A program made the translations under genes and the position numbers. A stretch of 64,000 nt of DNA from Neoechinorhynchus agilis (taxonomy: Eukaryota; Animalia; Acanthocephala): assembly GCA_051530055.1 (NCBI GenBank), contig CM121342.1, positions 9,315,480 through 9,379,479 on the forward strand, given 5' to 3'. Below the pieces are notes generated by a model. That model saw only the letters and a program-made list of their open reading frames with translations. It was not told where the DNA came from and did not search any database. Shown piece by piece: positions 4,860 to 38,599 of this stretch; positions within the stretch are counted from its first letter, which is position 1, and every line of letters begins with the position of its first letter.

Positions 4860-5093
4860 TCCAAATTCGTGCATTCAATGCACTTTTCGAGTTGTAAGAG
4901 AATTTATCGCGGTGGCCTTCACCAGTCGTTTTTGTAGGGAAAGTGTTCTCAATATTTTCGGAATATCATACTTGTCATGCTTTGGCTTCTTGACATGAAT
5001 ATCTGGGTTTTTTAATATATATCGCACATACACAAAACACACAAACGTTATATAAACGATATTGTTCAATGACGTAAATTCGTCATCACTACA
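4860..5093 (-). repeat. Solo/partial LTR of the Mag-like element at 11976-14600
   Basis: ~4915-5093 is nearly identical to ~11976-12163, which starts with TGTAGTG right after a PPT. No TSD found; the left boundary is approximate. Confidence 0.65.
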
Positions 5094-5479
5094 TTTCGAC
5101 TGTATTGGTACACAGATTGAAAACACTTCGTCGCTGTTCTGCTGATCTCTTGAACCACGAACGAATTGATGAATTTTAAAGTAAAACGATTTTAGTCTCG
5201 ATTCGAAGAGCTCGCGCGTGGATCTTTAAATTCACACGGTCTTCAAACATTGATCTCAGCTGCTTTTATACTCACTTGTTTATTGTTGACATTTTTTGAA
5301 AATATTATTGCAGTTCATGCCAGTCTATGTGATGTCCTCGTTTTGAGTAGTGTTTTGGCAAACGTTTTATGTCATAATCAATGACCAGGTAAATAGACGA
5401 ATGCTTATATTGGCCCACCTCCATTCGCGATCCATTGCTTCAACTGCTCGATCGACAAGGATGTGCACCGTTTGAGTTT

Positions 5480-5583
5480 TTAGCGGCGTCACGAAAAGAA
5501 AACCAAGTATGTTCTTTCGTCTTTCGGCTAAGGGAAACTTCTTACGGGTACACGTCAATCCCGTGGAAGAAGTTGCCGCCACA
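5480..5583 (-). repeat. 3' LTR (104 bp)
   Basis: Identical to 9508-9641 apart from a 30-bp indel. Starts TGTGGCGGC and ends GCCGCTAA; preceded on the minus strand by purine tract GGAGGGGAGGTA. Confidence 0.95.
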
Positions 5584-5607
5584 TACCTCCCCTCCAGTGT
5601 CGCCGCA

Positions 5608-8600
5608 CTAATCCGTTCCGTCCTGGAAACGTGCCGGTCTTTTGACTTGCCGACCGCAGCGCGTCGTTTGCTGGTTGGGAGGCCGTACTGGGTGCAGCAC
5701 CGGATCAGGGATTTGTGGTACATGGAGTTGGTCATTTGTTTGCTGGCTCACGTGGGCTCTCTTCAATCTGTCTACCGAGACGTGATGTTCTCTCCCGTTG
5801 ATCTGGACCTTGAAAGTTTTGGCACCAGTCTGGAGGACCCTGTACGGGCCATCATACTGACAAGACAGCGGGGGCTTGACCGCGTCGACCCTGACAAAGA
5901 CAAATTTGGCATTATCCAGGGAAGCTGGCGTTCTGGTAGGGTGATTGCTGTTGGCCTTCTTGGTCCACCTTGGAGGCGCGGGCATTAAATCCATTAGCTT
6001 GTCTCTGAGTTGTGCTAAACGGAGGCTGGGTATTTCGGATGCAGCGTCCTGAACAAACTCTCCAGGTAGTCGCAGTGTTGATCCGTAGACTACTTCCGCC
6101 GGGGAACAACCAAGGTCTTCTTTGGGCAAGGTTCTGAGCTCTAAGAGGACCCAAGGCAGGTCTCTGGCCCACGCCGATGATGAAAGTCGAGCCGTGAGGG
6201 AGGATTTGAGCTGTCGGTGGAAACGTTCTACCATGCCGTTGGCTTGCGGGTGGTAGGCGGTCGTACGGTGGACGTCTACTCCGAGGGCTTCGCCAAGGTG
6301 CGACCAAATTGCGGAGGTGAATTGGTTTCCTCTGTCGGAGGTAATATGGCTCGGTACGCCGAACCGAGCAACCCATGCGCCGAGGAATGCCTTTGCGCAA
6401 GTCCCTGCGGTTATGTCGCTTACCGGAACTGCTTCGGGCCACCGCGTGTGTCGGTCAACCATGGTTAGTAAGTATTTAAATCCGTTGGAGGATGGAAGGG
6501 GTCCAACCAAGTCTACGTGAACCTGCGCGAAGCGGGTGGCCGGTAACTGGAATTCAGAGAGGTCGCTTTTTACATGTCTGTGGACTTTGGACCGCTGGCA
6601 AGAGACACAGACCCTCGACCATTGGCGGACGTCTTTTGCCAGGCCGTGCCATACGAACCGCTTGGAGATCAGCTTGATTGTTCCGTTCGCTCCGGGGTGC
6701 GCAGTGTCGTGGAGGAGGTGAAAGACCCGGCTGCGCCAGGCAAGTGGAAGCCATGGCCTGGGCTGATCCGTTGAGACGTCGCAGAGCAGTTTCGGTCCTC
6801 TGGATGAGAGGTCGATTTTCTCCCAGCGGAGTGCAGGACAGGCTATCTGACAGGTAATGTACTCGTCGTCGGCCTCCTGGTCCGCGGCCAACCGCTCGTA
6901 GTCGATACCCAAAGAGACGGCGGATACAACTGGGGCGCGGGAGAGAGAGTCCGCGACTACGTTGTCTTGACCGGATACGTGGCGTATGTCAGAGGTGTAC
7001 TCTGCGATGAACGCCAGGTGTCGCTGTTGACGGGCTGATATCGGAGTGGACTTTTTCGCCAAGCTGAATATGAGCGGCTTGTGGTCGGTGAAAATCGTGA
7101 ACTCGCGTCCCTCGACTTGGGGGAGAAAGTGTTTGACCGCGAGAAAAACGGCCAAAAGCTCCTTATCGTAGGTGCTGTACCTTGTCTCGGCATCACGCAG
7201 CTTTCTGCTGAAGAAGGAGAGGGGCTGCCAGGTACCACCTTGTTTCCGTTGCTGGAGGGCTGCGCCGACTGCCCGGTCCGAGGCATCAGTGATGATGGCG
7301 AGCGCTGCTTCTGCGTTGGGGTGAGCAAGGAGGGCTGCATGTGCCAATAGCTCCTTGGTGTTTTGGAAGGCCTGCGAGGATTCTAAATCCAACGGGACGA
7401 TGTTGTTCTTTGCCTTGGGGTGGACGTCCAGAACTCGGTGGAGAGGGACCATGATCTTGGCGGCTCGGGGAAGGAAACGATGGTAGTAGTTGACCATCCC
7501 CAGGAACCGCTGTAGCTCGATCATCGTTAAGGGCTTAGGATACTCGCGGATGATCTTGACCTTGTCTGGTAGGGGAGCGATGCCGGCACCCGAAACCTTG
7601 TGTCCCAGGAATTCGACGGAGCTGAGACCGAAACTGCATTTCGCCGCGTTGATGACCAGGCCGAACTTCTGTAGTCGTGTGAGGAGTACTTCCAGGTGTC
7701 TGAGGTGTTCCGTCTTGTTACGGGAAGCGACGAGGATGTCGTCGATGTAGACGAAAATGTACGGTATTTCGCCTAGGACGGAGTCCATAAATCTCTGGAA
7801 GGTCTGGGCGCTGTTGCGTAGGCCGAACGGCATACGAGTGTACTCCCAAAGGCCGAATGGGGTGATTATCGCCGTTTTTGAGATGTCTTCCGGGGCTACC
7901 GGGATCTGGTGGTAGCCCTTGACCAAGTCGATCTTTGAAAAGACTGAACATCCGTGCAGGTTGCCTGCAAAATCATGGATGTGCGGCAGAGGGTATCTGT
8001 CTGGCTCCGTCGCAGCGTTTATTTGTCTGTAGTCCCCACAGGGCCGCTTGGTTCCGTCGGTCTTGTCGACTGTATGAAGGGGGCTCGACCATGGGCTGCT
8101 TGACTTGCGGATGATCCCATTCTGTTCGAGTTTCCTGAACTCTTCCTTTACTGTCCGGAGGATATCTGGAGCGAGGCGCCGTGCCCGTGCGTGTCTCGGT
8201 GGTCCGCGTGTCACTATGTGATGTTGCACCTGGTGTTGCACAGCCGAGTCGAATCTTGGTGTAAGGACAGCTGGATACCGGAGGAGCAACGCCTCGAAGT
8301 TGTTACTGGGCCTGGTCAGGACGCTGACCAGTTGGGTTGACCTCGGCGTTTGAAGGGGAATTGTGGTGGTTCGTGTATTGGAAACCAATCTTCGGCCTTG
8401 CAAGTCGATCATTAGCCCGACGTTTCGGAGGAAATCGGAACCAAGGATGGGATGCTTGACGTCGGCTATGATAAATTTCCACTGGTACCGGGCCCTGCCT
8501 GCGAGATTGATCGATAGGCTTTTAGTGCCGTAGGTCAGGATGGTGCTGTGGTTGGCGGCGATGAGCCTTTTTTTGTTGGGATGGGCTCGTTCGTTTCCGG

Positions 8601-8742
8601 ACGGTGGAACTATGCTGACTTGCGCCCCTGTGTCCACGAGGAAACTTCGACGGGAGTTTGCATCAAACACGAAAAAAAGGTCGCCCATGCTGCTGGTGCC
8701 GGTCGCGTGGGCGATTACTGTCGGCCGGCATCGGCGTTTCCC
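5608..8742 (-). CDS. pol: Pol polyprotein (protease, RT, RNase H, integrase with GPY/F motif)
   Basis: [40 protein letters not shown] (HDTAH...CVSC), [24 protein letters not shown]. Uninterrupted within ORF 5608-8916; the true start is inferred at the frameshift site. Confidence 0.95.
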
Positions 8743-9489
8743 TGTGTTGTTGAGGCAACTTTGCCGTTGAAAATGCAAGGTGGGATGCAGTTCCTGGATC
8801 GGTTGCCCCACTGGGCATGGAAACGGCATATACCTGGTATAATCCTCGCAGCTGATTTGTTTTTGCGGCGTTGTCGAATCCCGTCCACCATCGGGCTTGT
8901 CTGCTCGATCGCACATACTGTCGAGTCTCCTGCGACTTGAAAATAGAACTTGTCTGCCACTTCGGCCAGTTCGGTCAATTTGAGAGTATCCATGGATGCG
9001 ACGAGTTCACGGACCTTCGTAGGCAGCTTGCTAATGTAGTGGTAACGGAACAGGGGATTGGCGGCCGGGCAAGCGGGAGGGGGTATCCTCGTTGATTGTC
9101 ATCTCCACTATTTCCTGCATCCGCCGATATCCAGGAATGCTGAAGATCTGCCTCAGGCGAGCTTTCAGCCCATCGTACCGATCGCCGGGGGACGGCAGGT
9201 TGGCGACAAAACTCCCGAGCCGGCACAGAGTCTCGGCGTCCAAACTAGTAAATACATAGTCATATTTTGTCTGATCCTGGGTGATGTGGCGCAGTTGGAA
9301 TGTCGATTCCATCTGCAAAAACCACATATCGACGTCCTTCGGAGTAAACGTCGGAAGTCTCACTGAGACAGAGCTGATCTGAGCGAGGTCTGCCATTGCC
9401 TGGTTTATGGAAATAACCGAGGAAGTGCTTCCGCTTGATTGTGGTTCCGTGACGATGTCGCTATCAGAAGGTTGCTGTTGTTGTGCCAT
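8715..9489 (-). pseudogene. gag: Gag, disrupted by an internal deletion/frameshift near 9060-9075
   Basis: N-half VRLPTFTPKDVDMWFLQMESTF...TPSRL is in one frame. C-half PLFRYHYISKLP...LAEVADK...[18 protein letters not shown] (CHCC) is in another. Confidence 0.85.
8736..8742 (-). promoter_or_regulatory. Putative -1 ribosomal frameshift heptamer G_GGA_AAC
   Basis: Gag frame reads [10 protein letters not shown] and the -1 frame reads GKRRCRPTV into pol. The XXXYYYZ heptamer lies just before the gag stop. Confidence 0.75.
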
Positions 9490-9491
9490 TC

Positions 9492-9505
9492 CGTCGGGGT
9501 CACCA
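9492..9505 (-). promoter_or_regulatory. Primer-binding site complementary to tRNA-Trp 3' end
   Basis: TGGTGACCCCGACG lies 2 nt after the 5' LTR and matches the metazoan tRNA-Trp end (...CGTCGGGGTCACCA, recalled sequence). Confidence 0.85.
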
Positions 9506-9507
9506 AT

Positions 9508-9641
9508 TTAGCGGCGTCACGAAAAGAAAACCAAGTATATTAATATCTGATACATGAGTTACCTGTTTGTTCTTTCGTCTTTCGGCTAAGGGAAACTTCT
9601 TACGGGTACACGTCAATCCCGTGGAAGAAGTTGCCGCCACA
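9508..9641 (-). repeat. 5' LTR (134 bp)
   Basis: Direct repeat of 5480-5583 with an extra 30 bp (ATTAATATCTGATACATGAGTTACCTGTTT). Confidence 0.95.
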
Positions 9642-11099: not shown

Positions 11100-11975
11100 T
11101 GAATTAAATATTTCGGAACCTGAGTTCCCTCTTCAGTAAATTATTTTTTAGTGTGCTGTGTGGTTAGTGGTTTATATTGTTGAGTCGACTACTGTGCCCG
11201 AGTGCGTCATGTCCGTGGGAAGTAATCCGATTTCCCCCCCCCCGAGCTTGTGTAGGGCCTTTGTTTCCTTCCATCTTGTTTGCCATCTCAGTACAGTTGG
11301 CATCCTTAATGATCCGTCTTTGCCAATTGTTTTCGCGGTGTAATATTTTTGCCCCGGTAAAGTCTATTTTGTGGTCGTGCTCCCATGCGTGGTTGAATAC
11401 AGCCGAGAAGGTGTCCATTTTCAGTAAGTTGTATTGGTGCTGTTTAAGGCGTGTTTTAAGCCCTTGTTTCGTCTGTCCGATATATATTTTCGGGCAATCC
11501 CCGCACGGGATGCTGTAGACGACAGAAGGTGTGGGCATCTTGGGTTTGCGTTTAAATACACCACACAATTTGGGGGCTGCGGGAAAGTAAGAGATGATTT
11601 GTTTTTGGGCCTTCCTTAATGCGTGTGTCAACATGTTTGTTGATTTGGAGTCCACATATGTGCTTTTGACGTATTTAGGGGTTATTGTTCCGGACGTCGG
11701 AGTTGGAATGGTTTTTCGTTTCCTCCAGTGTTCGGCCCTCTTAATGACCCACTCAGAGTAATGTTTTTGCCTTAACATTGTTTTAACCTCGTGTGTGGCG
11801 GTTACTATGTAACCTTCAATGCAGCATATATCCCTGACTCGACCAAACAGTGTTCTAGCCGCTCCAATTTTGTACTTGCTTGGACCATGGCTTTTCCAGT
11901 CCACTAATCAAACGTTGTCGGTATTCTTGACGACCATAACATCCAGGAATGGTATTTCGTGTTTGGAATTTTCGG
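11100..11975 (-). mobile_element. Penelope-like element 3' part (RT end, GIY-YIG, pLTR; family B)
   Basis: IPFLDV RT motif; VVYSIPCGDCPKIYIGQTKQGLKTRLKQH; hammerhead downstream. Confidence 0.9.
11104..11139 (-). ncRNA. Minimal type I hammerhead ribozyme (PLE family B)
   Basis: TTA-CTGAAGA-G-GGAAC-TCAG-GTTCC-GAAA-TA-T-T-TAA: intact core, 5-bp stem II, palindromic helix III (ATAT). Confidence 0.85.
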
Positions 11976-14600
11976 TGCCTTCACCAGTCGTTTTTGTAGG
12001 GAAAGTGTTCTCAATATTTTCGGAATATCATACTTGTCATGCTTTGGCTTCCTGACATGAATATCTAGGTTTTTTAATATATATCGCACATACACAACAC
12101 ACCAAAACACATAAACGTTATATAAACGATATTGTTCAATGACGTAAATTCGTCATCACTACATTTCTTCCCCTTGAAGATAACGGTGCTTTCGCCTTAT
12201 TCGTGTACTTCGCCGGAGCCCTAGTCCCTCGTTCACTTCTTTTCGTGCTTCTGATTCATCTTCGTTTCTTTCGCTTTGGTCATCTGGTAATCTAAATTCC
12301 TCATCGCTCATATTCCTTTCAGCTTCACTACTTTCCGTGCTCGATCTTTGTTCTGATTCTTGTCGCGTATTGCCTCTTTCCACTATCTGATCGCTTTCAT
12401 TTTCATTCTCGCCCCTCGTTAAATCTCCGCCTACCTCTTCATTGATATTTTGCTTTGAATCCTCCTGATCTCTTTTCCCAATCGTTCTTTTTCTCAATTG
12501 GTCGGCATGCATTCTCTTTTCCCCTCCAGTTGTTTGTACGACATAAGACAAAGGTCCATTCTGTTTCATTATGACGCCCTCTTTCCATTCTTTTTTAATA
12601 GTGTCTCTAACCCACACCTTATCGTCCGCCTTGTAATCTGTCAAAGTTGCACAATTCTTATCATGGTTCTGTTTTTGCAGTGTTTTCTTGTTGTTGGATG
12701 TCTTAATTGCACTCGGTTTTATATTATCCATCAGAGACGTTAAACGTCGACCCATCATCATTTCGGCTGGACTTTTTTGTGTTATGGTGTGCGGGGTGTT
12801 TCTATAGCACAGAAGAAAATTTTGCAGACTTCTTTGCTCGGGTCTTGTTCGTCGTTTTAGGGTCGCCACAAATCTCTCTGCCAGTCCATTTGTTTTAGGA
12901 TGGTAGATGAAACTCCTACAATGTGAGATTTCATTTTCATTACAAAACGTTCTGAACTCATTTGAGATGAACTGCGGTCCGTTATCAGATACGATTCATT
13001 AAGGGATTCCGAACCTAGGTAGCACCTCCCGCAGGCAATTGATGGTTGTTTGTGCCGTGAAACTTGGTTTCAACCATACCTCTGGCCATTTTGAGAACGC
13101 GTCGACTGCTACCAGAAAATACATACCATCCATGGGAGCCGCGAAATCCACATTAATTCTCTTCCCCATTGGAATAATGGTTGTTCTCGAGTATTTGGTC
13201 GTTGTCTCTGGCAATCGACACAGCATGCAACATGTCATTCGATGTCCTTACCCATTACCGGCCACCAAGAGTAATATCTTGCTAAGGCATCATTGCCTTC
13301 TCTCCTGGATGCCCTTAATGCAGCTTTTGTAAAACCTCGTTTCTTTGCGAAGCGGGGATCACCATCTGGTCGAGCCATAATAATACATCATTTTCCATTG
13401 ATAGCTCATCCTTGCGTTTCACAAAATCCGTATCTTCGGATTTCGGTTTTACTGGCCATCCGGATATCAGATAACGCTTTACTCGAGCTACTTGTGTATC
13501 TCTGATTGATTCCTCTTTTAGTCTTGCCAAGGATAAATTCAGGATTGTCGGTGTTTCCTCCCTGACGCGCGCTATATCCATCTCAGGTTCGTTTGAAAGA
13601 TCCGAATTAAGACTAATGGGCATTCGAGAAAGGACATCAGCGTAATAGTTATTGACATCGGCTACGTGCTTGACTTCATAATCGTATTCTGCCATTTGAA
13701 TCGCCCATCTTATCAACCTAGAGTTAGCGACCTTTCCCAGATTCTGTTGGCGTCCGAAAATGTACTCAAGGGGTTTGTGATCAGTATATAACTCAAACTT
13801 TCGATCAAACACAAAATCGTGGAAACGTTTCACGCCATATAGCAGCGCCAGGACTTCTTTTTCATTAAAATCTGGAATTTTTAATGCTGTTTTTACTATA
13901 ATTTTGCTTGTGTCAGTAGAATTGAGATTCGTTCTTTTTGTCAAATTCTTCCGTGTTTATATTTTTCAACCGTGATTTTTTGCATTATTTTAATGTTTTT
14001 AATTAAAATCTGGAATTTTTAATGCTGTTTTTACTATAATTTTGCTTAAAAGTGTCAGTGAAATTGGGATTCGTTCTTTTTGTCAAACTCTTCCGTGTTT
14101 ATACTTTTCATCCGTGAAGCAAAACATACAGGTTGCAGATCACCTTTTTCATTTATGTGGAATAACACGGTTCCAAGTCATAATTCACTAGCATCACATG
14201 CTAGTGCTATGCTTCTTTTCCGATCGTATGGAATCAATCCTCGCGGTCTTCTCAATGCTTCTTTGACTTTTTGAAACGCGTTCTGGTGGTCATCATTCCA
14301 TTGCCACGTTATACCTTTCTGTGTTAATTCATAAAGCGTGTTGCAGGATCGATGAAAATCGGCACAAAATCGTGCATGGAAATTTGCTAGACCTTGAAAA
14401 GCTCTCAAATCTTTAACATTCTTAGGTTCCGAAGCTTCTGCTAGTGCCAATACTTCCCAAATCAATCTTGTTCACATCCACGAGTTCCGCTAGAATTTTT
14501 AAACCAAACTATAACATCCCTGGTAGGCCAAACAACGATCGACCAGATGCTGGCACCACGACTGCGTCGACTATCTTCCATTTACTAGGAAATCATCCAT
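11976..14600 (-). mobile_element. Degenerate Mag-like Ty3/gypsy pol fragment with PPT and partial 3' LTR
   Basis: Protease tail (VVVPASGRSLFGLP), connection (PKNVKDLRAFQGLANFHARF), RNase H (CDAS; TDHKPL; ADVLSR), integrase (VDFAAP; YRNTPH), PPT AAGGGGAAGAAA (12164-12175), then LTR TGTAGTG from 12163. Confidence 0.85.
13865..14117. repeat. AT-rich tandem repeat (~138-bp unit, ~1.8 copies) interrupting RNase H
   Basis: Units start TTAAAATCTGGAATTTTTAATGCTG at 13865 and 14003, inserted between the codons for FASR and EKE. Confidence 0.85.
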
Positions 14601-14639
14601 GCGAGACTGTGGGACATAGTCTTCTTGTGTCAAAGCAGC

Positions 14640-15160
14640 TCTAACCCTTTCCTGGATAAGCAACGCAGCATCCCCTTTCTTGTCAAGCCCAGCGATATGA
14701 ACACCAATCACTTTCCATGTCCCACTCACTTTGGTCAACAAAGGGGTAGATGTTTTCGACACATAGGCCCACCCATGTGTAATCGGCAAGAACTCGGGCA
14801 ACGCCCTCAATCGTTATGGAATCGATAGGTCTCAGGCTTAACGCGATCATCCTTTTGATATGAGTAAAGTTGGCGTCAAAGAGAACCAACTCACCCTCAC
14901 CCTCGACCATGTCAATATCCTGATGACGAAGAATAGCATTAACATTCGTTGGGGACTGTCGAACTCCCTTAAGAATTTCGGGACATAATTATGTCGACTT
15001 CATGGAAGTGTATCAACACTGTGTCTAACCACAGAAACGACAACGAAAACCAAGTGCCTTCTTCTGGTATCAGATGTAGTGGAACAACTATGGTATGTGG
15101 CCCCACGGCGAACGCGTGACAATTGCCCACTTCCGTTGAGATTTTAGCGATAGATTTCGC
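14640..15160 (-). pseudogene. 3C-like cysteine protease (viral), frameshifted
   Basis: GNCHAFAVGPHTIVVPLH (His codon 15074-15076), DTVLIHF, DYTWVGLC (Cys 14761-14763), TPLLTKVSGTWKVIGVHIAG (GVHIAG 14688-14705). Confidence 0.8.
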
Positions 15161-16700
15161 CTAATTATTAATAATATCAATCAGAGAAAGATCAGCTTCT
15201 GGCTTCATGTGCTTCTTCATATGAACTTTGTTCGGAGGCGCCGCACGCCGTATCTGGCTTCTCTTCACTGGTTGAAACTCTTTTTCAGCGCCCGATAGCG
15301 CAGGAATAGTCTCCGGCTCCATGTGGAAGGGGATCACCCTATCGGATTCTTCCCAGTCGACCACATCTTCAGCTCGCTGCCATTTGGTCCGGAACCATCT
15401 CAAAAGGCAGTCACCGGCACAAAGCGACGTCAGGACTAGAAAAAAACCCAACCAAGAGCTTCTTCATACCCCCCATCATGCTACGGAGACCTTCTATGAA
15501 TTGGTTCTTCGCAGTCACCATGAACTCGAAGACCCTTCTGTCGAGGAAACCCTCCCATTTCTGTTTGCACCAGTCCCAAGCCTCTTTGAATCTATCCACG
15601 GAACTGGAAGCCTTATTTTGGAGAGGATGAAGAATGCAGTCTTCGAACAACATACGCACCCGGGCTAGAACGCACATCGGGGCGTCGTGAAGCGACGAAA
15701 AATTGACCTCCATTTTCTCATCATCGACAACCCAGACAAAACCAGGCCCATTCTTGACTCTGTGGCGCCACATCCCCCCTTGTAAACGGCCGATGTCCAC
15801 GTTAAGTGAACACAATCATGGAGCATCTTAAAGAACTCGATTCTAGGGGTCTGAAATGCCACAGCTTGCCATGATATAGAGCATTAAGATGTACTCTTGA
15901 TGTCTGTCGGCCTGGGGCTTGCATATCTGGTCAAATTCGTTCCATTTTATCCGGTATCCCGATGCACTTTGTATACGACCTGTAGGCCTCAGATGTTCCA
16001 CACATCTTCGACTGTAAAGTCCCGACACGGCTTCAGTTCATGGACCTCATCCTTCTGAGACTCGTCCCACATGATTCCGTGCTTTTCGGCCATGGACAGG
16101 AGATACTTTTCATTTTCGAGTTCCTTTTTGTTGAGTTCTACCTCCTCGTGTGTTGGGAGCTTCTTTTTAATACGGCCACTGGAGTCCCGATAGTGTCGAC
16201 CTGCTTGTTCCCCATTTGCGGTTTATAAATAACCCTCGCGCTGTCTATGCTGGCTTCTTCTAAACCGCCCTGTTTTAGAGGTCGGCTGACATGATAAAGG
16301 ATCCGGTCCGGTAACCAACATATTGCAACTTCCACTTCGTGCACTCACACCATCTTTGACCCCACAGGTCACGTAGAGGTCTTGGTAGTACTTCTGATGC
16401 GTTCTGTGGTCGACAATATGTTGGCCTATGCGCCACCCAGCGGACCCACCATGAGGTGATGCGTAGTTGTTGTTGCAGTCCGAGCATGCCATGCGTTTTG
16501 ATTCACACAAAGCGCATCTGACCTGGGCATCTTTGAACTAAAGAGTTTTTTGGGTTTCCCCCATCTCGGACATAATAACTTTGATCCTGTTTATTCGCTG
16601 CTCGTCGTCATGAACATTCGCCATCAAAGCCGACTGAGAGGATTTACGCAGGAAACAAAGTGCTACATATGCCACGAATTCATCATAATTGTAGGTTTGG

Positions 16701-17150
16701 CTACCAATACGAAACTAGCGATTCCTTATTGTAGCCACCGGGGAGAATAGTACCTACTCGTTTCAATTCAGCTTGAATATCAATTCGCCTCTTAAGCGCA
16801 TCGGTATTCGTCAAAACGTCACCAACAACACCAGTCAGCCCATTGAACGCCGCGTTTGATGTGATATATACGAAATCAGAGCTAAAGAACAGCGTGCCCT
16901 TTGCTGAGCACTCGGCCACATTCAAAGGATAAGCTGTCTCGTCACCCATTCGTATAACATTCAATACTTCATTGAGGACAATCGAGCGGTGACGAGCCTG
17001 CAACTCAAAAACGCGTTGATAATTGTAAGTGTCGAAATACGAGCTATTCGGATTATAGCTGTATTTGTCCACTGAAGCGCTATAAGGCAGGGGTCACAAT
17101 GCCGCATACACATCATGGAAAAGATGGTCTACCAATACCGATTTACCTAG
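16701..17150 (-). pseudogene. 2C-like SF3 RNA helicase (viral), partial
   Basis: In one frame: LGKSVLVDHL (Walker A end, 17139-17147), one TGA, then YSYNPNSSYFDTYNYQRV, YPLNVAECSAKGTLFFSSDFVYITSN (motif C) and DALKRRIDI. Walker B acidic residues appear deleted. Confidence 0.9.
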
Positions 17151-19240
17151 GATCGTACCGATTCATAATAGAACAAGAGCGTTAACAGAGGCTTCGTCTC
17201 CTAGTAACGCGAAGGAATTGAGGAGTTTCATCGGACTGGCAAACTTTCACGTTCGATTCTATCCGAAGTTCCAAGAGCTATGTTCACCGCTGAACGAACT
17301 AACGGGATCGAGATCCCAATGGGAATGGAAAGCGCGTCTTGGGAAGGCCTTTGTTGAGCTAAAAAAAGTATTTACGAAATCCTAGAGGATTAATTCAATT
17401 CGATCACAAAAAGGAAGTTGCACTAGTTTGCGACGCGAACAGAGATCAACGATTTGGTGCCGATATCGTTCGCTTCACGCGTCCTCACCAAAGCAGAGAA
17501 AAACTGTTCGCAAATCGAAAAGGAAGCGCTTGCATTAATTTATGGCGTAAAAAAATACCATGATTATCTGTATGGGAGGTGTTTTACCATGTTCACGGAT
17601 CACAAGCCATTGCAGTTTATTTTCGGTCGAAATCGAGTTCTGTCCAAGGTAGCCAACTCTCGCATCGTTCGCTGGGCTCTTGAATTGTCATAACCCGATG
17701 TAAGGGAGCGAGTTTACTATATAACGCATGAGAACGAAGCCGCTCTGGATCTCAACGATACAAATTTAAGAGAATGCAAGAAAACAGATAAGCAAATGCC
17801 AAAGGTGAAGAGATTTTTAACATTACGATGGCCAGTCGCGGTGGAAGCGATGGATATAGCTTTTTGGAGGCGCCGGGCAGAATTATCTGTACAAGGCAGC
17901 GTCATAATTTGGTTGGACCGAATAGTGATTTTGAAGGCTCTGTGACGAAACGTATTATCGAAATTGTACGAAGGACATCCTGGCATTGCAGCGATGAAAG
18001 CTCTTGCTCGCTATTATTGTCGATGGCCAGGAATGGATCAGAACATCGAAAAGCACATCAACAGATGTTATGAGTGTCAATCCAGGAGACCGGCACTGAG
18101 GGGGATGCCACTATTCTCTTGGGAACCATCATGCGAGCCTTGGAAGAGGATCCATCTAGACTTTGCCGGGCCGATCAGCGGCTCGATGTACATGATAGCG
18201 ATAGACGCGTTTTCTAGGTGGCCCGAAGTATAGATGCGACTTTCATTCAATGCCAGAAACACAATCGAGTGTTTAAAGGAAGCATTTGCCCGCTGGGGAG
18301 TACCAGAACGGACAGTCACGGATAATGGGCCTCAGTTTGTGGCAGGAGAGCTCTCAGAGTTCTGTGGAAAGAATGGGATTACCCATTGTCGCAGCTCGTT
18401 CTATCACCCGAGGATCAACGGACTGGCTAAGCGATTCGTTGGAACGTTGAAAGGCAGAACAAGTGCTGGCATCAATAGCCTCCATAAGATGGTTTTGCTT
18501 ACCGCAACACTTGTAACGCGCTCACAGGCCAGTCACCGTCACAAATGATGATGGGACGGCGAATCCCGATATTGTTCGACAATTTGAAGCCAACACCTGC
18601 GAAGACCGAGGGGTAAAAACGGAGGAATGAAAAATGTCACCACGACCAAAAGGCCAGAAGATTCGAGGAATTCGATGGTAAGAGCGCAGTCTAGTACCCC
18701 GATGGTCGCCAAGAGAGATGGATACAAGCGTTGATACAGGAAAGAAAAGGCCCACTGTCGTACAAAACAGAGACAACCAGGGGATCATGAAAGCTCACGC
18801 CGATCATTTAAGGCACAGGGAGAGTGAATACTCCGAGCAGGAATACAATAAGCCCGCCGAGGAACAGGAGGCACGAAGTCAGTCTCAGTAGTGTGGAAAT
18901 GGCACAACGAGAGAAGCACGAAAGGACGACGGATGAACTCGGCGAATTAAACGACCCTGGGGATGCGAAGAATGAGGAGAATGTATCGGTGTATCATAAG
19001 GAAGAGAAGGTTCTTCAACCTAGGCGAAGCACTCGGATACGGTCGAAGCCCATCAGACCTCATGATGTTTTCCTTAAGCAAAAAGAAAATGGGGACGAAC
19101 GTCATGTATGATTGATATTGCGCACAATCCGCTAAGCGATATTAATGCGCAACGTGCCATTAACGTGATAGAGCAAACAGGGGGTGTGCATTTTGTTCGA
19201 AGGTTTTACTAAAAAGGTTACTCATGTCAGTTTTAAGGAG
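17151..19240 (+). mobile_element. Degenerate Mag-like Ty3/gypsy pol fragment (connection, RNase H, integrase, probable LTR start)
   Basis: FASRVLTKAEKNCSQIEKEALA, TDHKPL, HPGIAAMKALAR..C..C, IHLDFAGP, TDNGPQF. Confidence 0.85.
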
Positions 19241-19249: not shown

Positions 19250-19840
19250 CTATAACCCGTAAATGTGACCAATATCGCACAATGCATACCGCTAACCTCC
19301 CCTAAAGACTGGGTTCATATAAACATGGCCAGAAAGATTTTTCTCTCCAAAAAAGGAAAGGCCATTTCAGCAGCGGACGATGTGTGTCCAATTTCCATTC
19401 AAAACTCTCTCGTTACCCAGCATAAGGTGGATTTTGGAAAAGCGGCATTCTTATCCAGCGAATCGGATCTAAGAAGAAAACTGATTCTTGAGACCATTCA
19501 CATCCGGCGAAATCCAACGATGGAAGGCAACAAATCAAACCACACTCTGGTGCTACCAAAGTTGCGTAGTACGACGAACCAATTAGTCGGCAACAAACCG
19601 CAGGTGTGTGCGGATCGAAAACCTGCGGATCTGAGCTACATCCAGACATGACCTGCTATGCATGCTGTTTATGTCATCTCCATTTTAGATAGAGACTAAA
19701 GAGGCAAGGAAAATCTTGTGAAATATTTCGCAAATAAATGAGTAACGACAACACCGGGGACAGGATTCGCCAACGTATAATCAAATTTACCCCGAGGGCA
19801 ATGACATATGCCATTTAGGAAAATGGTGGTTTGCATTCTT
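19250..19840 (+). mobile_element. Chimera of LINE RT fragment (~19250-19415) and PLE family C 3' end with degenerate hammerhead (~19692-19731)
   Basis: RKIFLSKK..DVCPISIQNSLV resembles the LINE at 2201-2782. The rest is similar to 21345-21680. The HHR core is mutated (CTAAAGA). Confidence 0.75.
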
Positions 19841-20439
19841 GTGCTAGAACCCTCACCATTAGCGTCTCGCGTCTCGCATGGCATTTAAGAAGGCTGCTTC
19901 ACGAAGTCCACGCTGATTTGGCTGAGGCGCTTTTCAAACTATGAATAGATGTTGGGGAAGTGAGAGAGCAGCGCACAGAAAAGTTCATCAAGGATGAATT
20001 TTGGACGGAATCTAACGTTACTGATGCACATTTTGTAAATAAAAAATTGACAATTTGGTGAATATCAATCAAATAAGACAGTTACGAAACTCTTATACAA
20101 TCTAATTAGCAAAGAACTATGGTCGATAAACCAGTGATTTAACGGATCTTTGGAGCAATAATAAGAGAACTTCGTGTTAAGAAAATGGTTGAAGAATTGA
20201 ACAAGCAATTGGCGATAATCGATTGCAACGCTAAAATGCAATGCAGCTACAGAAAATCTCTAAAAACTAGCGTTTGGAAAAAACTAAGAAACATTTAGGA
20301 AAATTTGATTTATGACTGAAATCTAAAACACTTTTAGGTTTACACAGCGGAGTTTGATATCAGCTACAAGGCAGCCTCGTAATAAATTCTCCAACAACTG
20401 AGAGTCAATTGATTATAATAATTATGATCACAATGAAGA

Positions 20440-21344: not shown

Positions 21345-22600
21345 AAAATTATAATTGTGCGTTGGCGAATCCTTTCCCCGGTGTTTTCGTTAATCATTTA
21401 TTTTAGAAATATTTCGCAAGGTTTTCCTTGCCTTTTCAGTCTATCTAAAATGGAGGACGTAGACAGCATGCACAGCCGGTCACGTCTGCATGTAGCTCAG
21501 ATCCGCGGGTTTGCTAATACCCGAAGTGTGGGGAGTTCCATCCGCACACACCTCTTGCGGTTTGTTGCCACGCAACTTTGGTAGCACCAGCGTGTGGTTT
21601 GATTTATTACCTTCCATCGTCGGATTTCCCCGGATGTGAATGGCCTCAAGAATTTGTCTTCTTCTAAGGTCCGGTTCGCTGGTTATGAATCTCGCCTTTT
21701 CAAAATCCACCCTGTGCTGGATTGTTTGCTGGTGGTTCGAGATTGCTGAGGATTTGTCAAATGTCCTGCAAGCTTGCTTATGCTGCGAAATCCGTTTCCT
21801 GATCCCTTGCATGGTTTGTCCAATGTAGACCTTTGGGCATTCTGCACATGGGATTTTGTATATCCCTGATTTGGTCTCTTGCATGGTTTGCCTCTTGAGA
21901 ATACCTGCAATGGATGCACCAGTTTGTTGTAGATCAAAAGATTTGGAGCGAGGTAGTTGAGGCGCCTCAGTTTTTCGGTCGCGTTGTCACTTATGTGGTT
22001 AAAGCCAGTGTTTTTGAGGGAGATGCTTGCGGTATCCTTCTTCTTGCGATGGCCGCTATGTGTTGCCTTTTTCAGACTGATTTTGATGGCATATTCAGGG
22101 AAGCCTCGTGATCTAAGAACTTTCGTGATACTTTGTTTTTCTTCTTATCAATCCCTGCTTTCTGAAGAAATCATCCTGGCCCTCTTGAAGTAGGACGTTG
22201 CCGCTGTTATTTTATAGTGGAACGGTTGGTGACTCGACGAGTGAAGTGGACCCCATGCTATACCTGGTTTGCGGTAGAGTTGTGTTTTGATGTTGCCTTT
22301 ATCATCGTGTTTTATCTTTACGTCCAAAAAGGAGATAGCCCCCTCTTCATCTTCCTGAGTCATTGACCACTGGATGCTTGGATCCTCCATGTTGAGTGGA
22401 ATGCTTAGGTCTCCCTTGCTCGTTTCATCATCAGTGACTATGAACACGTCGTCAACATAGCGATACCACTTTTTGATGTTGGGTTGCTTCTTCAAGTTGT
22501 TTTCCCATCTTCTCATGTAGAGATCAGCTAGAGTGGGTGCCAGAGATTGCAACTCCGTCGCGTTGTTCATAGAAAACTTGATCGAATTCAAAAACGGTCT
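21345..22600 (-). mobile_element. Penelope-like element (RT + GIY-YIG + pLTR; family C), 5'-truncated
   Basis: PTLADLYM, WYRYVDDVF, ISFLDV, LYRKP; GIYKIPCAECPKVYIGQT. Confidence 0.92.
21404..21443 (-). ncRNA. Minimal type I hammerhead (PLE family C), core G8>A
   Basis: TAGA-CTGAAAA-G-GCAAGG-AAAA-CCTTGC-GAAA-TA-T-T-TCTA. Confidence 0.75.
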
Positions 22601-23027
22601 TGCATGTGCACCACTGCAGTAGAGTTATCCACGTTTTATGATCAAGGCGCGGTTCTTCGCATTGATTGTGTAGAAGTTCAGCTGCTTCTTGAGGACTCTA
22701 CGGAAAAATAACTAGATTACTGAGCACTTTCATCAACAGACGAGGTCTTCTACAGCCAGGGCTTCAGCCGGACAAGAAGGGATAGACTAAAATTTAATGA
22801 TGAAAACAATAGCGGCTTGCCAGTAAAAACTTAAAATAGATTGTAATGAGTGTGATGAGGGAGTATAAAAACGCCTCCTGTCTATTTGTTTGCCGCCCTC
22901 CACAAGCGATTGCACGTTGGTGCGCGTTTGACTCGATTTTCACCCTTTAAACGCAATTGGTTCTAACGTTTGAATTTACGGCGCCGATTGGTCAATCGGA
23001 CTGAAAAAACCATTTTTATATGCTGCC

Positions 23028-26227: not shown

Positions 26228-28260
26228 AAATCCACACCGTATTTTCCTCCCTTCCGCTGCACTGACGGCACCATCGGCGATTTCGAGGGAGTAGGGGATG
26301 TTGCTGGCTGCGAGGGTGTCCACACACGTGGCTTCCCAGGGAATGCATTTGCCCTCCCGCCACGGGAAGACCGAAATTCCATCGGGCCTACGGCCGTCTA
26401 GTCGACAAAGGTGGGCGGGTTCCAGGATGTTCGGGAAGTTCGCCGTTCTCAACGCCCGAGAAATTGCGTTATTGATTTCAGAATGGCGTGAGAATCTTCC
26501 TCCTGATCTTCTGCAGACGAGACCGTGTCGCCCGAAAGCATCAACCAAAGACCCACATCGACAGCGATTTGGCGTGCATATCGGGAGACCAAGTCTTAAG
26601 GATACTGCGATCCTCGTTACCTCATCAGTAAGAAGAGTTCCCACTGATGCCAGAGGAACAGCCTCCAACCACGCCCCAGATTTTCCTGTTGAAACTGCCA
26701 ACAGTCTAGCTCGGACGACCCCATCGCGAGAACCTGAAAGTAGAGAGCTGTGAGCTCTCGCGACAAGAGGTCCGTCCCAGATAGACTGTCTGAGGCCATT
26801 CACGGTAACATGGTTAGCGCCTGTCTGCTGTCACCATTCCTCAACCGCCACTACTAAATCTCGGTCAAGACAGAACTTTTCCTTCAAAATTTTCTTCGAT
26901 ACTGGTAGGCTCTCCTCAAACGATCCAAGAAAGGCTGGCAAAGCAAGGTCCACTAGTGCCCGAATCCCCAATCCCCCAGATGACACAGGCAAAGAAGCTT
27001 GTCGCCACGCCTCATATGAGAGCTGGACATTTAAAATACGCTCGAGACACGCCCTCACCTTGCCGTCGAGCTTAGCCAATCCTTCCTTATGTTTGAAAAA
27101 TGTTGCTGTTCGAACCTTGTACAATAATTTGGGGATGAAGAGCGCATCTTTATAAGAAACAAGGCTTCATGAGCCGAGAGAGCGCTCACCCTATCGCACA
27201 GCAACGAAAGTTTCGGTATGATATGGCCGATCTCATCTTCCACATTTGAATCGAAGACGCAACTGCCCAGGAGGCTTAGTTGCTCCCGAGTCACGAGTTT
27301 CAGAACTGGAGCTATGGCTTCGAAACCAGCCATTAGTTCTTTGACTTTGGTGGCGTCTCCAATATTCAATACAAGGAGCTCACATTTTCCAGCATTGAGC
27401 ACAATGCCCATCTTCGAGGTCTCCCTAATCAGCGTCTCCAAATCACGCAATACAACGGAGGGATCACCACCGAGCGTAGCGTCATCCAAGTACCAAGCGT
27501 TGAAGCTGGAATGGAGAGAATGCGCTATTGGATTTACTGTTAGGGAGAATGCGATTGGACTGAGGGGATCTCCTTGCTGCACTCCTCTTTCGGACCAAAT
27601 GAGGTGCTCTTCGAAAAGCAAAGGAATCGCCGTCCCGTAGGCATTGAGAAAATACTGGAAGGCTTCTGGTGCGTGATCCCGAATTGCGCAGAACATGGTT
27701 TCTCTATTGAGAGAGTTAAAGGCGTTCCGAAAATCGCACTTAAGAATCACGCACGGCTCTGAGCTTCTCGTAGCAAAGTTTCGGAGCGGGTGGACAATAG
27801 CTTCAACCCCGCAGGATGTGCAGCAGCCCAGTTGGACTGGACGAAGTTGTTGTCCGGTTTTCTCTGTAATACGTTCGCAGAGAATTTTTCCTGCGAGTCG
27901 GCGTATCGTCGAGCCATGAAGGCGCACAGTTCGTTTGCAGGCAATCATTGAGCAATCCCGTAAATGCTTTGGCGACCAGATATCGCGCGCCTTTAGGGAT
28001 CCGTTTCAGGACGTTCCTGGGCAGAAACCGCACGATATCAGGTATCGAAATAGAATCAGTGGTGATCTGAGGGGTCTCAATCACAAAAGGTTCGATTAAT
28101 TGTGGTGGAGAACCAGACCCACTACAGCGGAGATCCCGGGGACCATGCGTTGCACGGAACCAAAATTGGATACCACGAAGACCTCTTTCCGGTTCAACGA
28201 CTCCTTCTACGATCAGAAAGACGGACACAGAAAAGTGCGAAATTCTATTCCGTAACATAG
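26228..28260 (-). mobile_element. CRE-like non-LTR retrotransposon (RT + zinc knuckle + restriction-like endonuclease), young subfamily
   Basis: CDFRNAFN, GVQQGDPL, WYLDDATLGG, CRCG..HGLVC..RHSEIN, RPDGISVFPW..WEATCVDT. Nearly identical to 49190-50965. Confidence 0.9.
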
Positions 28261-34190: not shown

Positions 34191-36327
34191 GTCATTCTGC
34201 TTGGTCCCTTTAAATTGACGGCGATTTTATTCTTTTTTTCAGGTGTTGCATTGTTCTTTGGGATCGCAACGCTCATCAGGTTCTTTATTTTTGTTTCATC
34301 CGATCTTATCCAGTCATCTTCCAGTATATGTCCTAAGTAAACTACTCGTGTTTGAATAAGTTGGCACTTTTCCAATTCAAAATTCATCCCCTTCTCGTCC
34401 AATAACCTCAACACCTCTCTAAGATTTTGGAAGTGAATCTCATCGTTTGCCCCCCGTGACAATTATATAGTCAAGATACACTCCAACGTTACCAACGTTT
34501 TTTAGTATATCATCAATGATCCTTTGGAAAAATTGAGGCGCATTAGTGAGACCAAAAGGCAATCGCCTGTATCGGAATAAACCAAAAGGTGTCGCGATTA
34601 CACACAATTTGCTGCTTTCCTCATCGGGTTCGACTTGTAAGTAGGCACCCGATAAGTCCGAAGCTGAATATTTCTTCCCACCAACCAATTTGCTTAACAA
34701 CTCGTCCACCATCGGCATCTGATACGATTCGGCCATTAAATGCGGGTTGAGCGTGCTTCTGAAATCCGCACATATCCTCACTGATCCATCTCCTTTTCTG
34801 ACCACAACTATTCGTTTTCGGCCGGGTCCACTACTTCTAAAACTCCTCGCTCCACTAATCTTTCCAAATCGCATTCCACCGGTTTCTGCAGAGCGAAGGG
34901 AATACGTCTTGCTGAGCATTGGACCGGTCTTGCTTCTTTATCGATGCACAAATGCGCTTTGACCCCTAGATAGGTTCATCCTTCTGCACGCACAATCTTG
35001 GAAACCATTTACTGATTATCTTACGACTCACATCAAATCCTTCCTGTTTTCGGGTGCTGCAGATCTCTACTGACTTAGGCATCGTCATTTTGGACACTTT
35101 GCGCCATGCTAGACCAAATAAACATCGTGTTCCTTCCGATGCTTTAATAACCGCCGCTTCCAATCGCCGAGAACGACCATCAATTCGGACCATTACCATG
35201 CATTTCCCCAGACAACATAGCGGCGTTCCGCCAAAACTGCATATGTTTTATCCTGGTTTCAAATTCGGCTTTCCGATCCTTGTCCATGCTTCTTCAGTAA
35301 GGATTGTTATATCCGCACCCGTATCGAATTGCATTTTAATCCTTACTTTATTTATTTTCGGCGAGATCATTGCTCTTCGAATAGTTTCTCCTTTGGTCAC
35401 CGCGCTTACTTCTATTGACTCTTCTTCGGATGAGAAAATTGATTCGCTTCGCATTAATTTTGTGAACCGTGATTTACGCGATCGGCACATCCTTGCGAAA
35501 TGGCCTGTTTTGCCACATTCATAGCATTTCGCTTCTTTGGCGAAACATTTCTGCTGCTTGGTATGTGAGCGACCACAATTCGGGCATTTTACACGCCTTC
35601 GTGTTAAACTTACTTCCGCTATCTCTTCGGATACCACTGCTGGCTTGACTTCATCATTTTCGATCAACTTTGCCGTTTGTTCTGCTAACTCCAATCCTTC
35701 CGCCATCTGACTAAGCTCTTCCAACGATATTGATGATCTTCCTAATGCTGCCCTCCTTAATGCTGTTGATGGAGTATTGAGGATGATATGGTCCTTTATC
35801 CTATCGTTGGCAGCTGTCACTTCATCTCGAATTCGGGAGTTGAAAAAATTACACCCTCTCGCACATCATCTGAGCTCAGTAATCTATTCAAGGCGCGTTT
35901 GTTCGTGCCGCTTTCTTAGTTGGCGTAGACGATAGCGCTGTGCCACCTCGTGAATTTTCCCCAAAGTGATTGTACAGCTTCAGAATCAAATCCTCATATG
36001 TTAATTTTTTAAAAGCCCGACCCGTCGTTAATTTTTTAACTCTTGGAACACAGTCGCACTGAGCCAGGAAAGAAGACATCCTCGTTTTTCCCACTATCCA
36101 CAATTCCATTTACTTCGAAATGCTGCTCCAACTGTCCAACATATTCCATCCGTGCTTGCTTCTCTCCATCAAATGTCTTGAATACCGATAAACTGCTAAT
36201 CCTCTGAGTCAGGTCCTTTTCCTCCGTCCATCTTTCTAAGATCGCTGATTGTCTCTCCTGCTGCTCAAGAAGCTCCAATACCTTGGTATGTATTTCCATT
36301 AATGATTGGATCCCACCCTCGTCGCCA
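34190..36327 (-). mobile_element. Mag-like Ty3/gypsy 5' part (PBS, gag with two zinc knuckles, protease, RT), degenerate
   Basis: PBS 36310-36327; CPNCGRSH...CYECGKTGHFARMC; FDTGA; RICADF, YRRLPFG, YLDYII. Confidence 0.9.
36310..36327 (-). promoter_or_regulatory. PBS complementary to tRNA-Ser(GCT) 3' end
   Basis: TGGCGACGAGGGTGGGAT on the minus strand; matches the recalled metazoan tRNA-Ser(GCT) end. Confidence 0.8.
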
Positions 36328-36467
36328 GGTGATAATGTTGACATCGAAACAGCAGCTAGTTTTTTTTAAACTCACAAACCACACACACGAATTTTTTGTA
36401 ATTGTGTTATCGATCGGCGCTTTGTGTAGTGAGTGAATTATCAATCCCCGCTTAACATTGGGACATT

Positions 36468-36485
36468 TGGCGACGAGGGTGGGAT
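36468..36485 (+). promoter_or_regulatory. PBS complementary to tRNA-Ser(GCT) 3' end
   Basis: TGGCGACGAGGGTGGGAT, 2 nt after an LTR-like ...GGGACA end. Confidence 0.8.
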
Positions 36486-38590
36486 GCAAAAGAGACTGAG
36501 CAACATCGAAGAGGTGCTGATCAATCAGGCAGCAGTTAATGAAATTGCTGCTAGAAGATAGACGAGAACAAAATACAGGAAGTAGGATGAAGATTTCAGG
36601 TTTCCGCAGTTTCTTTCCCGCGAAGGAAGAGTGGACGGAATACGAAACTCAATTGGGCAAAGATTTTGGGTACTGCGGGGTGACAGATGATGACGTTAAC
36701 CAGTCCTGCCTGCTGGCGTGGATGGATCAAGAGGTATTCGTAGCCCTGAGGAAGCACCTGAGCGCTGATTGCGAGTTTACAGAGATAACGAAAGCTCTTC
36801 GAGACATCTATAAGTCGGAGATTCACGAGATCGCAGCGCGTTACCGATTCTTCAACCGTCCAATGCATAAACCGGACGTGCCGGGAGTGGGTTGCTGATT
36901 TGGGGGAAGCTGCGGAAGGTTGTATGTTTTTCAAGAAAGAAGTAACGAACGAGCAGTCGGCGACCGATGTTTATATCCGCGACGCAATCATCATTAGCCC
37001 GCCACATGAAGAAGTGAGAAAAGCTGCGTTCAACAAGAAAGATCTCACTCTGAAAGATTTGTTGGAGATCACCGACACTTTCGAGAGCACGAAGGAAGCG
37101 ATGAAGATTATTATATCAGGGAACAGCGCACCGTTTTCGGACTCAGAGGTCAAAGCAGTAAGTACCTGGCCAAGGAAGCAGAGACAGTCTAAAAGTCGAA
37201 GAAGTACTGAGTCCCCGGAACGTTGGAGGATGAGATGTTTTCGATGTGGCAGGGACATCGTGAAGTGAAAAAATGTGGAGCAAAATCTATGAAATGTTTC
37301 AGATGCAACAAAATGGGACATTTGGCACGATGCTGCAAAGAGTTGAAAGATGTGAATCAAATAGTACTAAATTCGGATGATGATAGTGATACAATGCTTC
37401 GATGTATTCGGAGACCGAGAGGAAAGCAGAGAGCAGAGATGTCAGCTATTATCAATGGGTTGGCGATTACAATGGAGTTCGACACTGGGGCGGCGGAATC
37501 AATCATCACCAGAGCAACTTGTAGGAGCTGGGTGAGCCCCCTCTGAAGGAGGCGTCAAAGATCAGAGCGTTTGGGGAACGAGGATCGAGACGCTTGGCTC
37601 TTGCGTCTTGCAAGTGAGAGTGGGCCGGAAATTGAAGAATTTGGAGGTGATTGGGATTACTGGAATAGAACGCCCAATTTTCGGGCTACCATGGATGTCA
37701 GCATTTGGTTTGAAAATACCGGAAGCTCGAATCGTTGCAGTCAACCAGATTCAAGAAAACGATGCCAAGGCACGTTCGATAGGTTCCAGAATCTAAGAGC
37801 AGTTCCCGGCACCCTTCGATGGCCACACAGCAGCTGTGAAGGGGTTCGTGGCCGGTTTTGCTTCATTATCTAATATTCAGGGCAGTATTCATAAGACAGC
37901 CGTTCGCATTACATCAAGCTCTAGAGGAAGAATTAGAAAGATTGGTTAAAGACGATATTTTGGTTCCGGTCGATGCGGTGAAAGATGATCTGACATGGGC
38001 CACGCCGATTGTAATCGTGAGAAAAGCCAATGGGAGGATCAGGATATGTGGCGACTTCAGAATCACCTTAAACAAATATCAAAGACTGGACCCGCTGCAA
38101 ATACCTACATTTGAGGAGGTGACTCAAAAGTTAGCTAGCTCCGGCTGGTATAGCTCAATTGATTTAAAGGATGCCTGCCTTTAGATTCCGGTGGATGAGC
38201 AAACCAGCAGGATGCTCACGATTTGTACTCCGTTCGGATATTTTAGATACAGGAGGATGCCCCTGGGAAATTCTACCGCACCCGGAATCTTTCAGAGATA
38301 TATTAGCAAGGTTCTCAAAGGAATCCCCAATACAGCAGCATATCTAGATGATATTATCATTGCTACAAAAACACTAGACGAACACGAAACATGTTTGAAG
38401 CAAGTGCTTGGACGTTTGGAAGATGAAGGTATTCGGGTTCAAGGAGGAAAGTGCGTTTTTGCTGTTAAGGAAATTCGTTATTTGGGCCATGTCATCTCCG
38501 AAAACAGGATAACAACCATTCACGACAGAACGAAAGCGTTGACAGAAGCTTCGCCGCCTAAAAACGCGAAGGAGCTGAGGAGTTTTCCTA
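36468..38590 (+). mobile_element. Mag-like Ty3/gypsy 5' part (gag, protease, RT), degenerate
   Basis: CFRCGR..H / CFRCNKMGHLARCC; FDTGA; RICGDF; YLDDIII; PPKNAKELRSF. Confidence 0.9.
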
Positions 38591-38599
38591 GCATTGGGT

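Follow-up and report, generated by a model that had tools for sequence, protein, structure and literature searches.

The question posed by this locus is how a segment of an RNA virus came to lie between the halves of two retrotransposons in the genome of the acanthocephalan Neoechinorhynchus agilis. The stretch of DNA analysed (64,000 nucleotides (nt) of contig CM121342.1, referred to throughout as the window) contains a picorna-like endogenous viral element (EVE), which an earlier note had described as fused in sense to the pol gene of a Mag-type gypsy retrotransposon ending in a polypurine tract (PPT) and a long terminal repeat (LTR). The virus-retrotransposon chimera was found to be a genuine genomic feature. 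It belongs to a composite unit of 7,235 bp (positions 11995-19229) consisting of the 3' half of one gypsy element (element 1), the virus segment and, in inverted orientation, the 3' half of a second gypsy element (element 2), with no host DNA at either join between the virus segment and the gypsy halves. It is considered probable that the whole unit was inserted by one integrase event, after reverse transcriptase (RT) had switched onto viral RNA and the product had been joined to complementary DNA (cDNA) of element 2.

Structure of the composite unit

The viral segment (14588-17148, minus strand) is 2,561 nt in length and comprises the second half of a Walker A motif, a helicase, a Cys-rich region, a 3C-like protease and approximately six codons of a likely polymerase start. 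The open reading frame (ORF) at 16704-17093 matched the helicase family PF00910. A profile-free search of 1.84 billion representative sequences returned 58 matches, headed by the protein of the window itself and by polyproteins 2,400-2,700 residues long; the best relatives were picorna-like (41-56% identity), and a helicase was present in all six relatives scanned for domains, RdRP_1 in five, 3C in four and Rhv in one. A virus profile built from eight relatives placed the helicase at 17147-16716, the Cys-rich region as far as 16388 and the protease at 15355-14987, and the end of the protease was matched pairwise to one relative, P0003, at 14741-14649. The middle of the segment (approximately 16390-15355) had no significant match; it is single-copy, and the matched parts on its two sides are about as far apart as expected. 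Measured from where the match begins to the likely cleavage site, the segment has about 847 codons and P0003 has 772, so that no large internal part has been lost. The order of SF3 helicase and then 3C-like protease, a trait of Picornavirales, is present, the protease being homologous to that of relatives with PF00548; the RNA-dependent RNA polymerase (RdRp) and jelly-roll capsid genes fall outside the captured segment. A scan of the whole window with the virus profile found no viral sequence outside 17207-14987 (17207-17149 being alignment overrun), and no poly(A) was found at either viral end.

In a helicase tree of 52 rows (three short rows were dropped and four matches had been left out beforehand) the segment was sister to P0005 (support 100/96), a predicted protein of N. 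agilis and the sequence nearest to the EVE, inside a clade (97/91) with Beihai sesarmid crab virus 2; the tree thus placed the segment with unclassified viruses and in no named family. Searches for a close virus yielded one locus at 54% from 14 candidate stretches of viral contigs, none among 218 candidates from metagenome contigs, only P0003 itself among 137 candidates when its helicase was the query, and one of 202 in another search. A database protein, P0002, is 100% identical to the helicase ORF of the window over residues 5-130, and the decayed EVE has thus apparently been annotated as a host gene.

Further viral copies were observed. One diverged copy, at approximately single-copy depth, matches 16864-16982 (21 differences in 119 nt; this part was seen in N. 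agilis contigs) and 17098-17148 (5 in 51). This copy is likely the one behind P0005 (ACOME3_000931 of N. agilis; 85% identical over 16976-16794). Of the differences listed for it, 12 of 13 are at the third codon position, and it suggests that a sister virus was endogenised independently. In reads, the Cys-rich region was also seen as short additional copies of approximately 95% identity, at 16446-16539 (about 3x) and 16510-16716 (about 1x).

The status of the EVE as integrated in host DNA and inherited, which defines a non-retroviral EVE, follows from its coverage in raw DNA reads (read sets X7 and X8), its bridging by contigs and its stops. Four stops were present in 430 profile-supported viral codons, and the viral frame changes near 16715, 14985 and 14750. 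The full length of the viral segment is single-copy: its depth in the X5 contigs was 109, and that of unique contigs from the flanks 107 and 124. Record 1 of X2 spans 14400-17300 with 0 differences; contigs from X1, X3 and X5 bridge the join to element 1 (junction 1), and contigs from X3 and X5 the join to element 2 (junction 2).

Junction 1 was located at 14588/14587, where reads of the multi-copy gypsy family match to 14587 and carry different sequence beyond that point (79 reads in X8, 43 in X7 and one contig in X5). On the minus strand the virus is followed by the protease tail, RNase H, integrase, PPT and LTR of element 1, and the sense fusion described earlier was confirmed in its domains and orientations. 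The viral frame was not found to run directly into the protease, as had been claimed: it continues for 16 nt past the Ser of its ...PQS end, the two parts are joined out of frame, and the viral frame reaches a stop after five further codons. These 16 nt are likely the start of the polymerase, as the relatives have a comparable Q/G site with a Phe a few residues after it. No part of 14588-14606 longer than 10 nt recurs in the rest of the window, and templated filler is thus not evident.

Junction 2 (17148/17149) lies within Walker A (the alignment with P0003 starts at residue 414 and its Pfam domain at 405), and reads of the multi-copy element 2 family begin exactly at 17149. The viral segment is thus cut through Walker A and abuts a second gypsy pol in the opposite orientation, as stated in the earlier note; given the candidate target-site duplication (TSD) described below, what had been taken as an incidental cut more probably arose in the same event. 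Overlap at this junction was scored by proxy: the second viral copy, a proxy diverged by approximately 10%, matches to 17148 and the element 2 family from 17149, leaving zero overlap. A 6-bp palindrome centred on junction 2 (odds of 1 in 64) was not used as support. The earlier claim of preservation at near-nucleotide resolution is borne out as regards where the joins lie, but not as regards microhomology, the closest virus found being only about 55% identical in protein.

Element 1 (minus strand) ends in LTR1 (11995-12163), a 3' LTR of 169 bp with perfect 5-bp inverted termini (TGTAG...CTACA), which follows directly after its PPT (12164-12175). An LTR end at approximately 11976, proposed previously, was rejected, as there were no inverted termini there beyond CA. 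The pol remnant at 12176-14455 (profile positions 664-1321, with stops and frame changes) contains the RT thumb, RNase H and integrase (Pfam RT_RNaseH and rve). Within it, an AT-rich stretch of 251 nt (13865-14115) with an internal repeat (13858-13975 versus 13996-14117) replaces 36-39 nt of RNase H; family reads join 13864 to 14116 and the stretch is likely a later insertion. Approximately 0.8 kb of the RT core has been lost: at 14453-14455 the profile passes from position about 400 straight to 664, the two parts overlapping by 3 nt, and the deletion was seen at this locus only. In X8, 93 family reads depart at 14453 and 98 at 14455; as these numbers are similar, the thumb and the aspartic-protease tail (14453-14587, profile positions 363-400) are likely from one family. 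The score of the tail was reached by none of 500 shuffles (147 reported by HMMER), and the tail is 43% identical to that of another element at 37629-37754. No 5' LTR1 was found beyond 12167 within the window. The relatives of element 1 include K02A2.6-like proteins, which we take to be linked to the Mag lineage.

Element 2 (plus strand) consists of a pol remnant (17149-19079, profile positions 656-1327) with RT motif 7, thumb, RNase H and integrase, a PPT (19080-19099) and LTR2 (19100-19229), a 3' LTR of 130 bp which starts with CG, ends with CA and has the same spacing from its PPT as LTR1. A single-copy X5 contig begins at 19200; if k is 31, as we presume, its first 31-mer ends at 19230, the first non-family base. 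The order of protease, RT, RNase H and integrase, followed by PPT and LTR, was matched, with the RT core deleted in element 1 and the 5' part absent from element 2. Mag elements in Culex have LTRs of 119-304 bp with TG...CA ends (PMC3286476, Table 1); LTR1 has such ends at 169 bp, and LTR2, at 130 bp, starts with CG. Both gypsy halves are likely of the Mag lineage. They are of different families: identity was 37-54% at the amino-acid level in the main blocks, and 448 of 782 aligned bases were identical.

Each LTR lies directly after its own PPT and faces outward, giving two 3' LTRs, and the composite has neither a 5' LTR nor a primer-binding site (PBS); read on either strand, it begins as the minus strand of one element and finishes as the plus strand of the other. 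The event was not recent, because the protease tail has at least 9 differences in 135 nt from its own family and element 2 has 3 in 79 nt from one family contig.

Evidence for a probable single integration and its alternatives

The 5-mer GTTTT is present directly outside both LTR ends (11990-11994 and 19230-19234, plus strand) and was regarded as a candidate TSD. Of 441 offset pairs, the 0,0 register alone gave identical 5-mers, and the chance of a match was 0.0012 for any 5-mer and 0.0015-0.0023 for GTTTT; two or three LTR1 ends and three lengths had been tried by eye beforehand, which makes 0.005-0.01 a fairer figure. The LTR ends can be placed without the duplication, LTR1 by its PPT and inverted termini and LTR2 by its PPT, its CA end and the contig start at 19200, the end of LTR2 having first been noticed together with the match. 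A TSD of 5 bp was recorded in 20 of 21 Culex Mag rows in the visible part of the table cited above (PMC3286476), a trait which GTTTT would match if it is a true TSD; an unrelated gypsy element in the window (5479-9641) also has a 5-bp duplication. A true TSD would enclose the virus and both halves, so that the chimera would predate integration and have been placed by an integrase. No TSD was found around the element 1 piece alone and, accordingly, none showing a later insertion of the Mag piece into a pre-existing EVE, one of two findings that the earlier note had named as telling against capture. Nor was the other, older copies of the EVE with non-gypsy flanks, found among the further viral copies, which are short or from a diverged virus and whose flanks were not resolved.

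According to the proposed mechanism, RT on element 1 RNA would have copied the LTR, integrase, RNase H and thumb during minus-strand synthesis, skipped approximately 0.8 kb (then or later) and copied the protease tail, before moving onto plus-strand viral RNA at a point some 19 nt beyond the likely 3C/polymerase cleavage site. It would then have copied 2,561 nt of viral RNA back to Walker A. The chimeric strand would have had no PBS for normal second strand transfer, and its 3' end may have been joined to stalled minus-strand cDNA of element 2, either by template jumping and mutual priming or by end joining. The product, with two U5 'CA' ends, would have been accepted by an integrase, with duplication of the 5-bp target GTTTT; lacking a 5' LTR and a PBS, the unit would have been dead on arrival, stayed single-copy and decayed. 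While we infer the switch and join steps, the origin of the chimera by reverse transcription of an LTR element, as suggested earlier, was supported: no host DNA is present at the joins, reads of the multi-copy families break off precisely at the two edges of the virus (14587 and 17149), and virus and element 1 have the same sense, as would be expected if copy choice took place on plus-strand RNA (10.1101/127498).

A fuller reading is put forward tentatively, as possible in its entirety rather than probable. It would hold that two stalled minus-strand cDNAs of different gypsy families, one of them diverted onto viral RNA, mutually primed end to end in one RT complex; that such a two-U5 substrate, by bypassing second-strand transfer, is a general germline rescue route for virus chimeras without a PBS; that this route can be recognised by outward-facing 3' LTR pairs with one shared TSD; and that the locus is the first picorna-like record for thorny-headed worms in the literature searched, with repeated endogenisations of at least two virus variants. 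Germline entry of RNA-virus DNA from retrotransposon particles has so far mostly been inferred from adjacency, and two outward PPT-LTR ends with a shared TSD of 4-6 bp would be a signature for which any EVE catalogue could be scanned. The locus also documents germline carriage of a plus-strand picorna-like virus, from an order rarely endogenised, in a group of parasites for which almost no viruses are known.

Several observations weigh against a single integration. The main weakness is a second copy of LTR1 (4910-5097, minus strand; 94% identical), which carries the last 4 nt of the PPT and at least 22 nt of the same trailing sequence, including the 5-mer; if these trailing nt are a property of the family and do not stem from a local duplication, the 5-mer on the left did not come from the target. 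LTR1 and LTR2 are unrelated (best local match 14/18), so that one integrase would need to accept two different ends, and LTR2 starts with CG rather than TG. There was zero overlap at junction 2 by proxy, unlike the microsimilarity at most Drosophila LTR-mRNA switches. The two duplications seen in the window are both T-rich (GTTTT and AGTTT); any preference for such sites would make a chance match more frequent. No empty allele was found among the 15 of 98 joints listed, no contig spanned the left 5-mer among those listed (there being 955 further records), and the contig over the right 5-mer has 30 letters on its left side. Finally, no precedent for the architecture was found in the main texts of the open-licence literature, the supplements of Tan 2016 and Crava 2021 being places where comparable junctions may be held.

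With regard to the second LTR1 copy, a local duplication fits better than a family-level leader because of the shared PPT end, the position 7 kb away on the same strand, and the spacer of the trailing TGG, which lies 8 nt from the LTR end compared to 2 nt in two related elements at 36.3-36.5 kb (CA, 2 nt and TGGCGACGAG at the PBS). On the same spacer length the trailing TGG was disfavoured as a PBS. In Mag elements the PBS is expected to match tRNA-Ser or tRNA-Leu; a tRNA scan of the window found none. Such a duplication would probably have been associated with a Penelope-like insertion at 11977, the edge of a 5'-truncated element with a GIY-YIG domain in translation (11100-11977, minus strand) which lies 17 nt outside LTR1, is part of the flank only, and at whose edge an X5 family contig starts. 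When the host flanks were rejoined, no continuous repeat or ORF match was found within the window. An inverted repeat at the rejoined site (7/8 with the flank of the second copy, a value arising in 5% of 5,000 random pairs, and 5/8 with its own flank) was not used as support.

Some of these observations would suit a two-step history, in which an element 1-virus chimera integrated, element 2 inserted nearby independently, a later deletion fused helicase to RT and the 5-mer matched by chance. The window is dense in nested and truncated elements, at least one change in element 1 (13865-14115) is likely of later date, the families differ with unrelated LTRs, and the trailing sequence is common to the second LTR1 copy. 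Such a history is nevertheless thought unlikely: it requires a coincidence of 0.001-0.002 at both LTR ends, and neither further viral sequence nor a 5' LTR1 was found in the remainder of the window.

It is very improbable that naked viral cDNA was end-joined, without a template switch, into a break between pre-existing gypsy fragments. Insertions without LTR sequence are known in Aedes, where EVE-LTR adjacency can reflect LTR density (PMC8048955), and junction 2 is blunt by proxy; the flanks, however, are not halves of one element but belong to different families in opposite directions, and the outer 5-mer duplication would be left unexplained. It is equally improbable that the composite was formed as proposed with the transcript of an older genomic EVE, and not replicating virus RNA, as the template. 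The short Cys-rich-region copies would be candidates for such an EVE, and in the copy of 16510-16716 (8 differences in 194 nt) the listed differences are spread over first (4), second (3) and third (2) positions of codons, as in neutral decay. These copies, however, match over 94-210 nt only, the rest of the 2.56 kb being single-copy, and the third-position differences in the copy at 16864-16982 and 17098-17148 indicate a separately evolving virus. Misassembly of repeats and contaminating viral sequence was dismissed, despite the repeat-dense region and a bridging run that may be the source of the window's own assembly, as the bridging contigs are from two studies (P1 and P2), raw DNA reads of another (P3) cover 30 of 30 bins and the viral part bears stops.

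Possible transcription and surrounding sequence

In X1 and X3, which are RNA by guess only, window-type contigs covered most of 12590-19163 at a depth of approximately 3-16, compared to 0-2.7 in the flank at 20106-20400. The repeat-to-virus depth ratio was 4 and 18 in X1 and X3, compared to 587 and 74 in X5 and X8. This depth pattern hints that the composite is transcribed, the RNA status of the two runs being a guess.

The gypsy element at 5479-9641 is near-intact and of another lineage, with a DUF7041 gag, a pol ORF of 1,132 codons, an LTR stretch that is 99% identical and an AGTTT duplication; it is likely young. Two Mag-like elements lie back to back at 34250-38622 with two outward-facing PBSs, one apparently inserted in opposite orientation 22 nt from the end of the 5' LTR of the other. 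Penelope-like (GIY-YIG) fragments are present at 11100-11977, 19417-19819, 21346-22624 and 47416-48154, and the bin at 19478-19791 reaches about 590x single-copy depth in X5. A Cullin-family ORF of 332 codons (38999-39997) lies amid repeats. Recent duplications with 96-99% identity pair 45245-47447 with 61627-64000, 51339-52691 with 56005-57361, and 26237-27912 with 49286-50961, the last pair carrying an RT domain.

Comparison with known systems

The retroposition of mRNA by LTR elements (Tan et al. 2016; PMC5131818) resembles the present case in that foreign RNA replaces part of the ORF of an LTR element, the copy is partial and without poly(A), and several switches are possible. There, however, RT returns to the retrotransposon, so that the captured RNA is expected to lie between LTRs of the carrier at both the 5' and the 3' side (confirmed in five cases), whereas here two inverted 3' LTRs of different families were found. 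Microsimilarity was reported at 25 of 29 switch points in Drosophila (PMC5131818, section 5); here the one join scored, by a proxy approximately 10% diverged, had no overlap, and the internal deletion had 3 nt.

Fusion of a non-retroviral RNA virus to LTR-element sequence by copy choice is also known from recombinants of lymphocytic choriomeningitis virus with intracisternal A particles (Geuking 2009, as summarised in PMC3205384), and copy-choice fusion to retrotransposons in insects from flock house virus circles (PMC5857290) and viral DNA hybrids of Sindbis virus and cell fusing agent virus (CFAV; PMC6797480). In Aag2 cells the fusion was reported not to be homology-driven, and fusions are found in both orientations (PMC5857290, PMC6797480). 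Those products were somatic or episomal and arose in experimental infection, in contrast to the inherited, decayed locus described here, in which both joins and a candidate TSD are preserved. Non-retroviral EVEs of Aedes associated with Ty3/gypsy as well as Bel/Pao elements (PMC8048955, 10.1101/127498) share the same polarity, a repeat-dense region and hybrids such as CFAV-EVE-1; they involve another virus order and host phylum, and 'target site' occurs 0 times in the two main texts, which thus hold no single-event integration shown by a TSD. Crava et al. (PMC8048955) noted that EVE-LTR adjacency can follow from LTR density. The available part of a yeast review (PMC7175516) contained no matching case.

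On the viral side, Beihai sesarmid crab virus 2 and Logan/JGI relatives (P0007, P0003, P0001, P0004 and P0006) share the helicase clade and the order helicase-3C-RdRp in one polyprotein, but their helicases are only 47-55% identical and the Beihai virus is listed by NCBI as unclassified. Putative Mononegavirales-like EVEs in Pomphorhynchus laevis (PMC12548735) are likewise RNA-virus sequences in an acanthocephalan assembly; they differ in being negative-strand RdRp sequences on unplaced contigs. Picornavirales EVEs are rare, with only eight eukaryote-DNA RdRp sequences of the order in that survey (PMC12548735), and no picorna-like EVE in acanthocephalans was reported in the main texts of the open-licence literature searched. 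In the main text of the N. agilis genome paper viruses occur only in the references (PMC12690905). N. agilis has piRNAs (PMC12256650), so that the EVE may be a source of antiviral piRNAs. The architecture itself is without precedent in the literature searched, and the locus extends known LTR-mediated virus capture.

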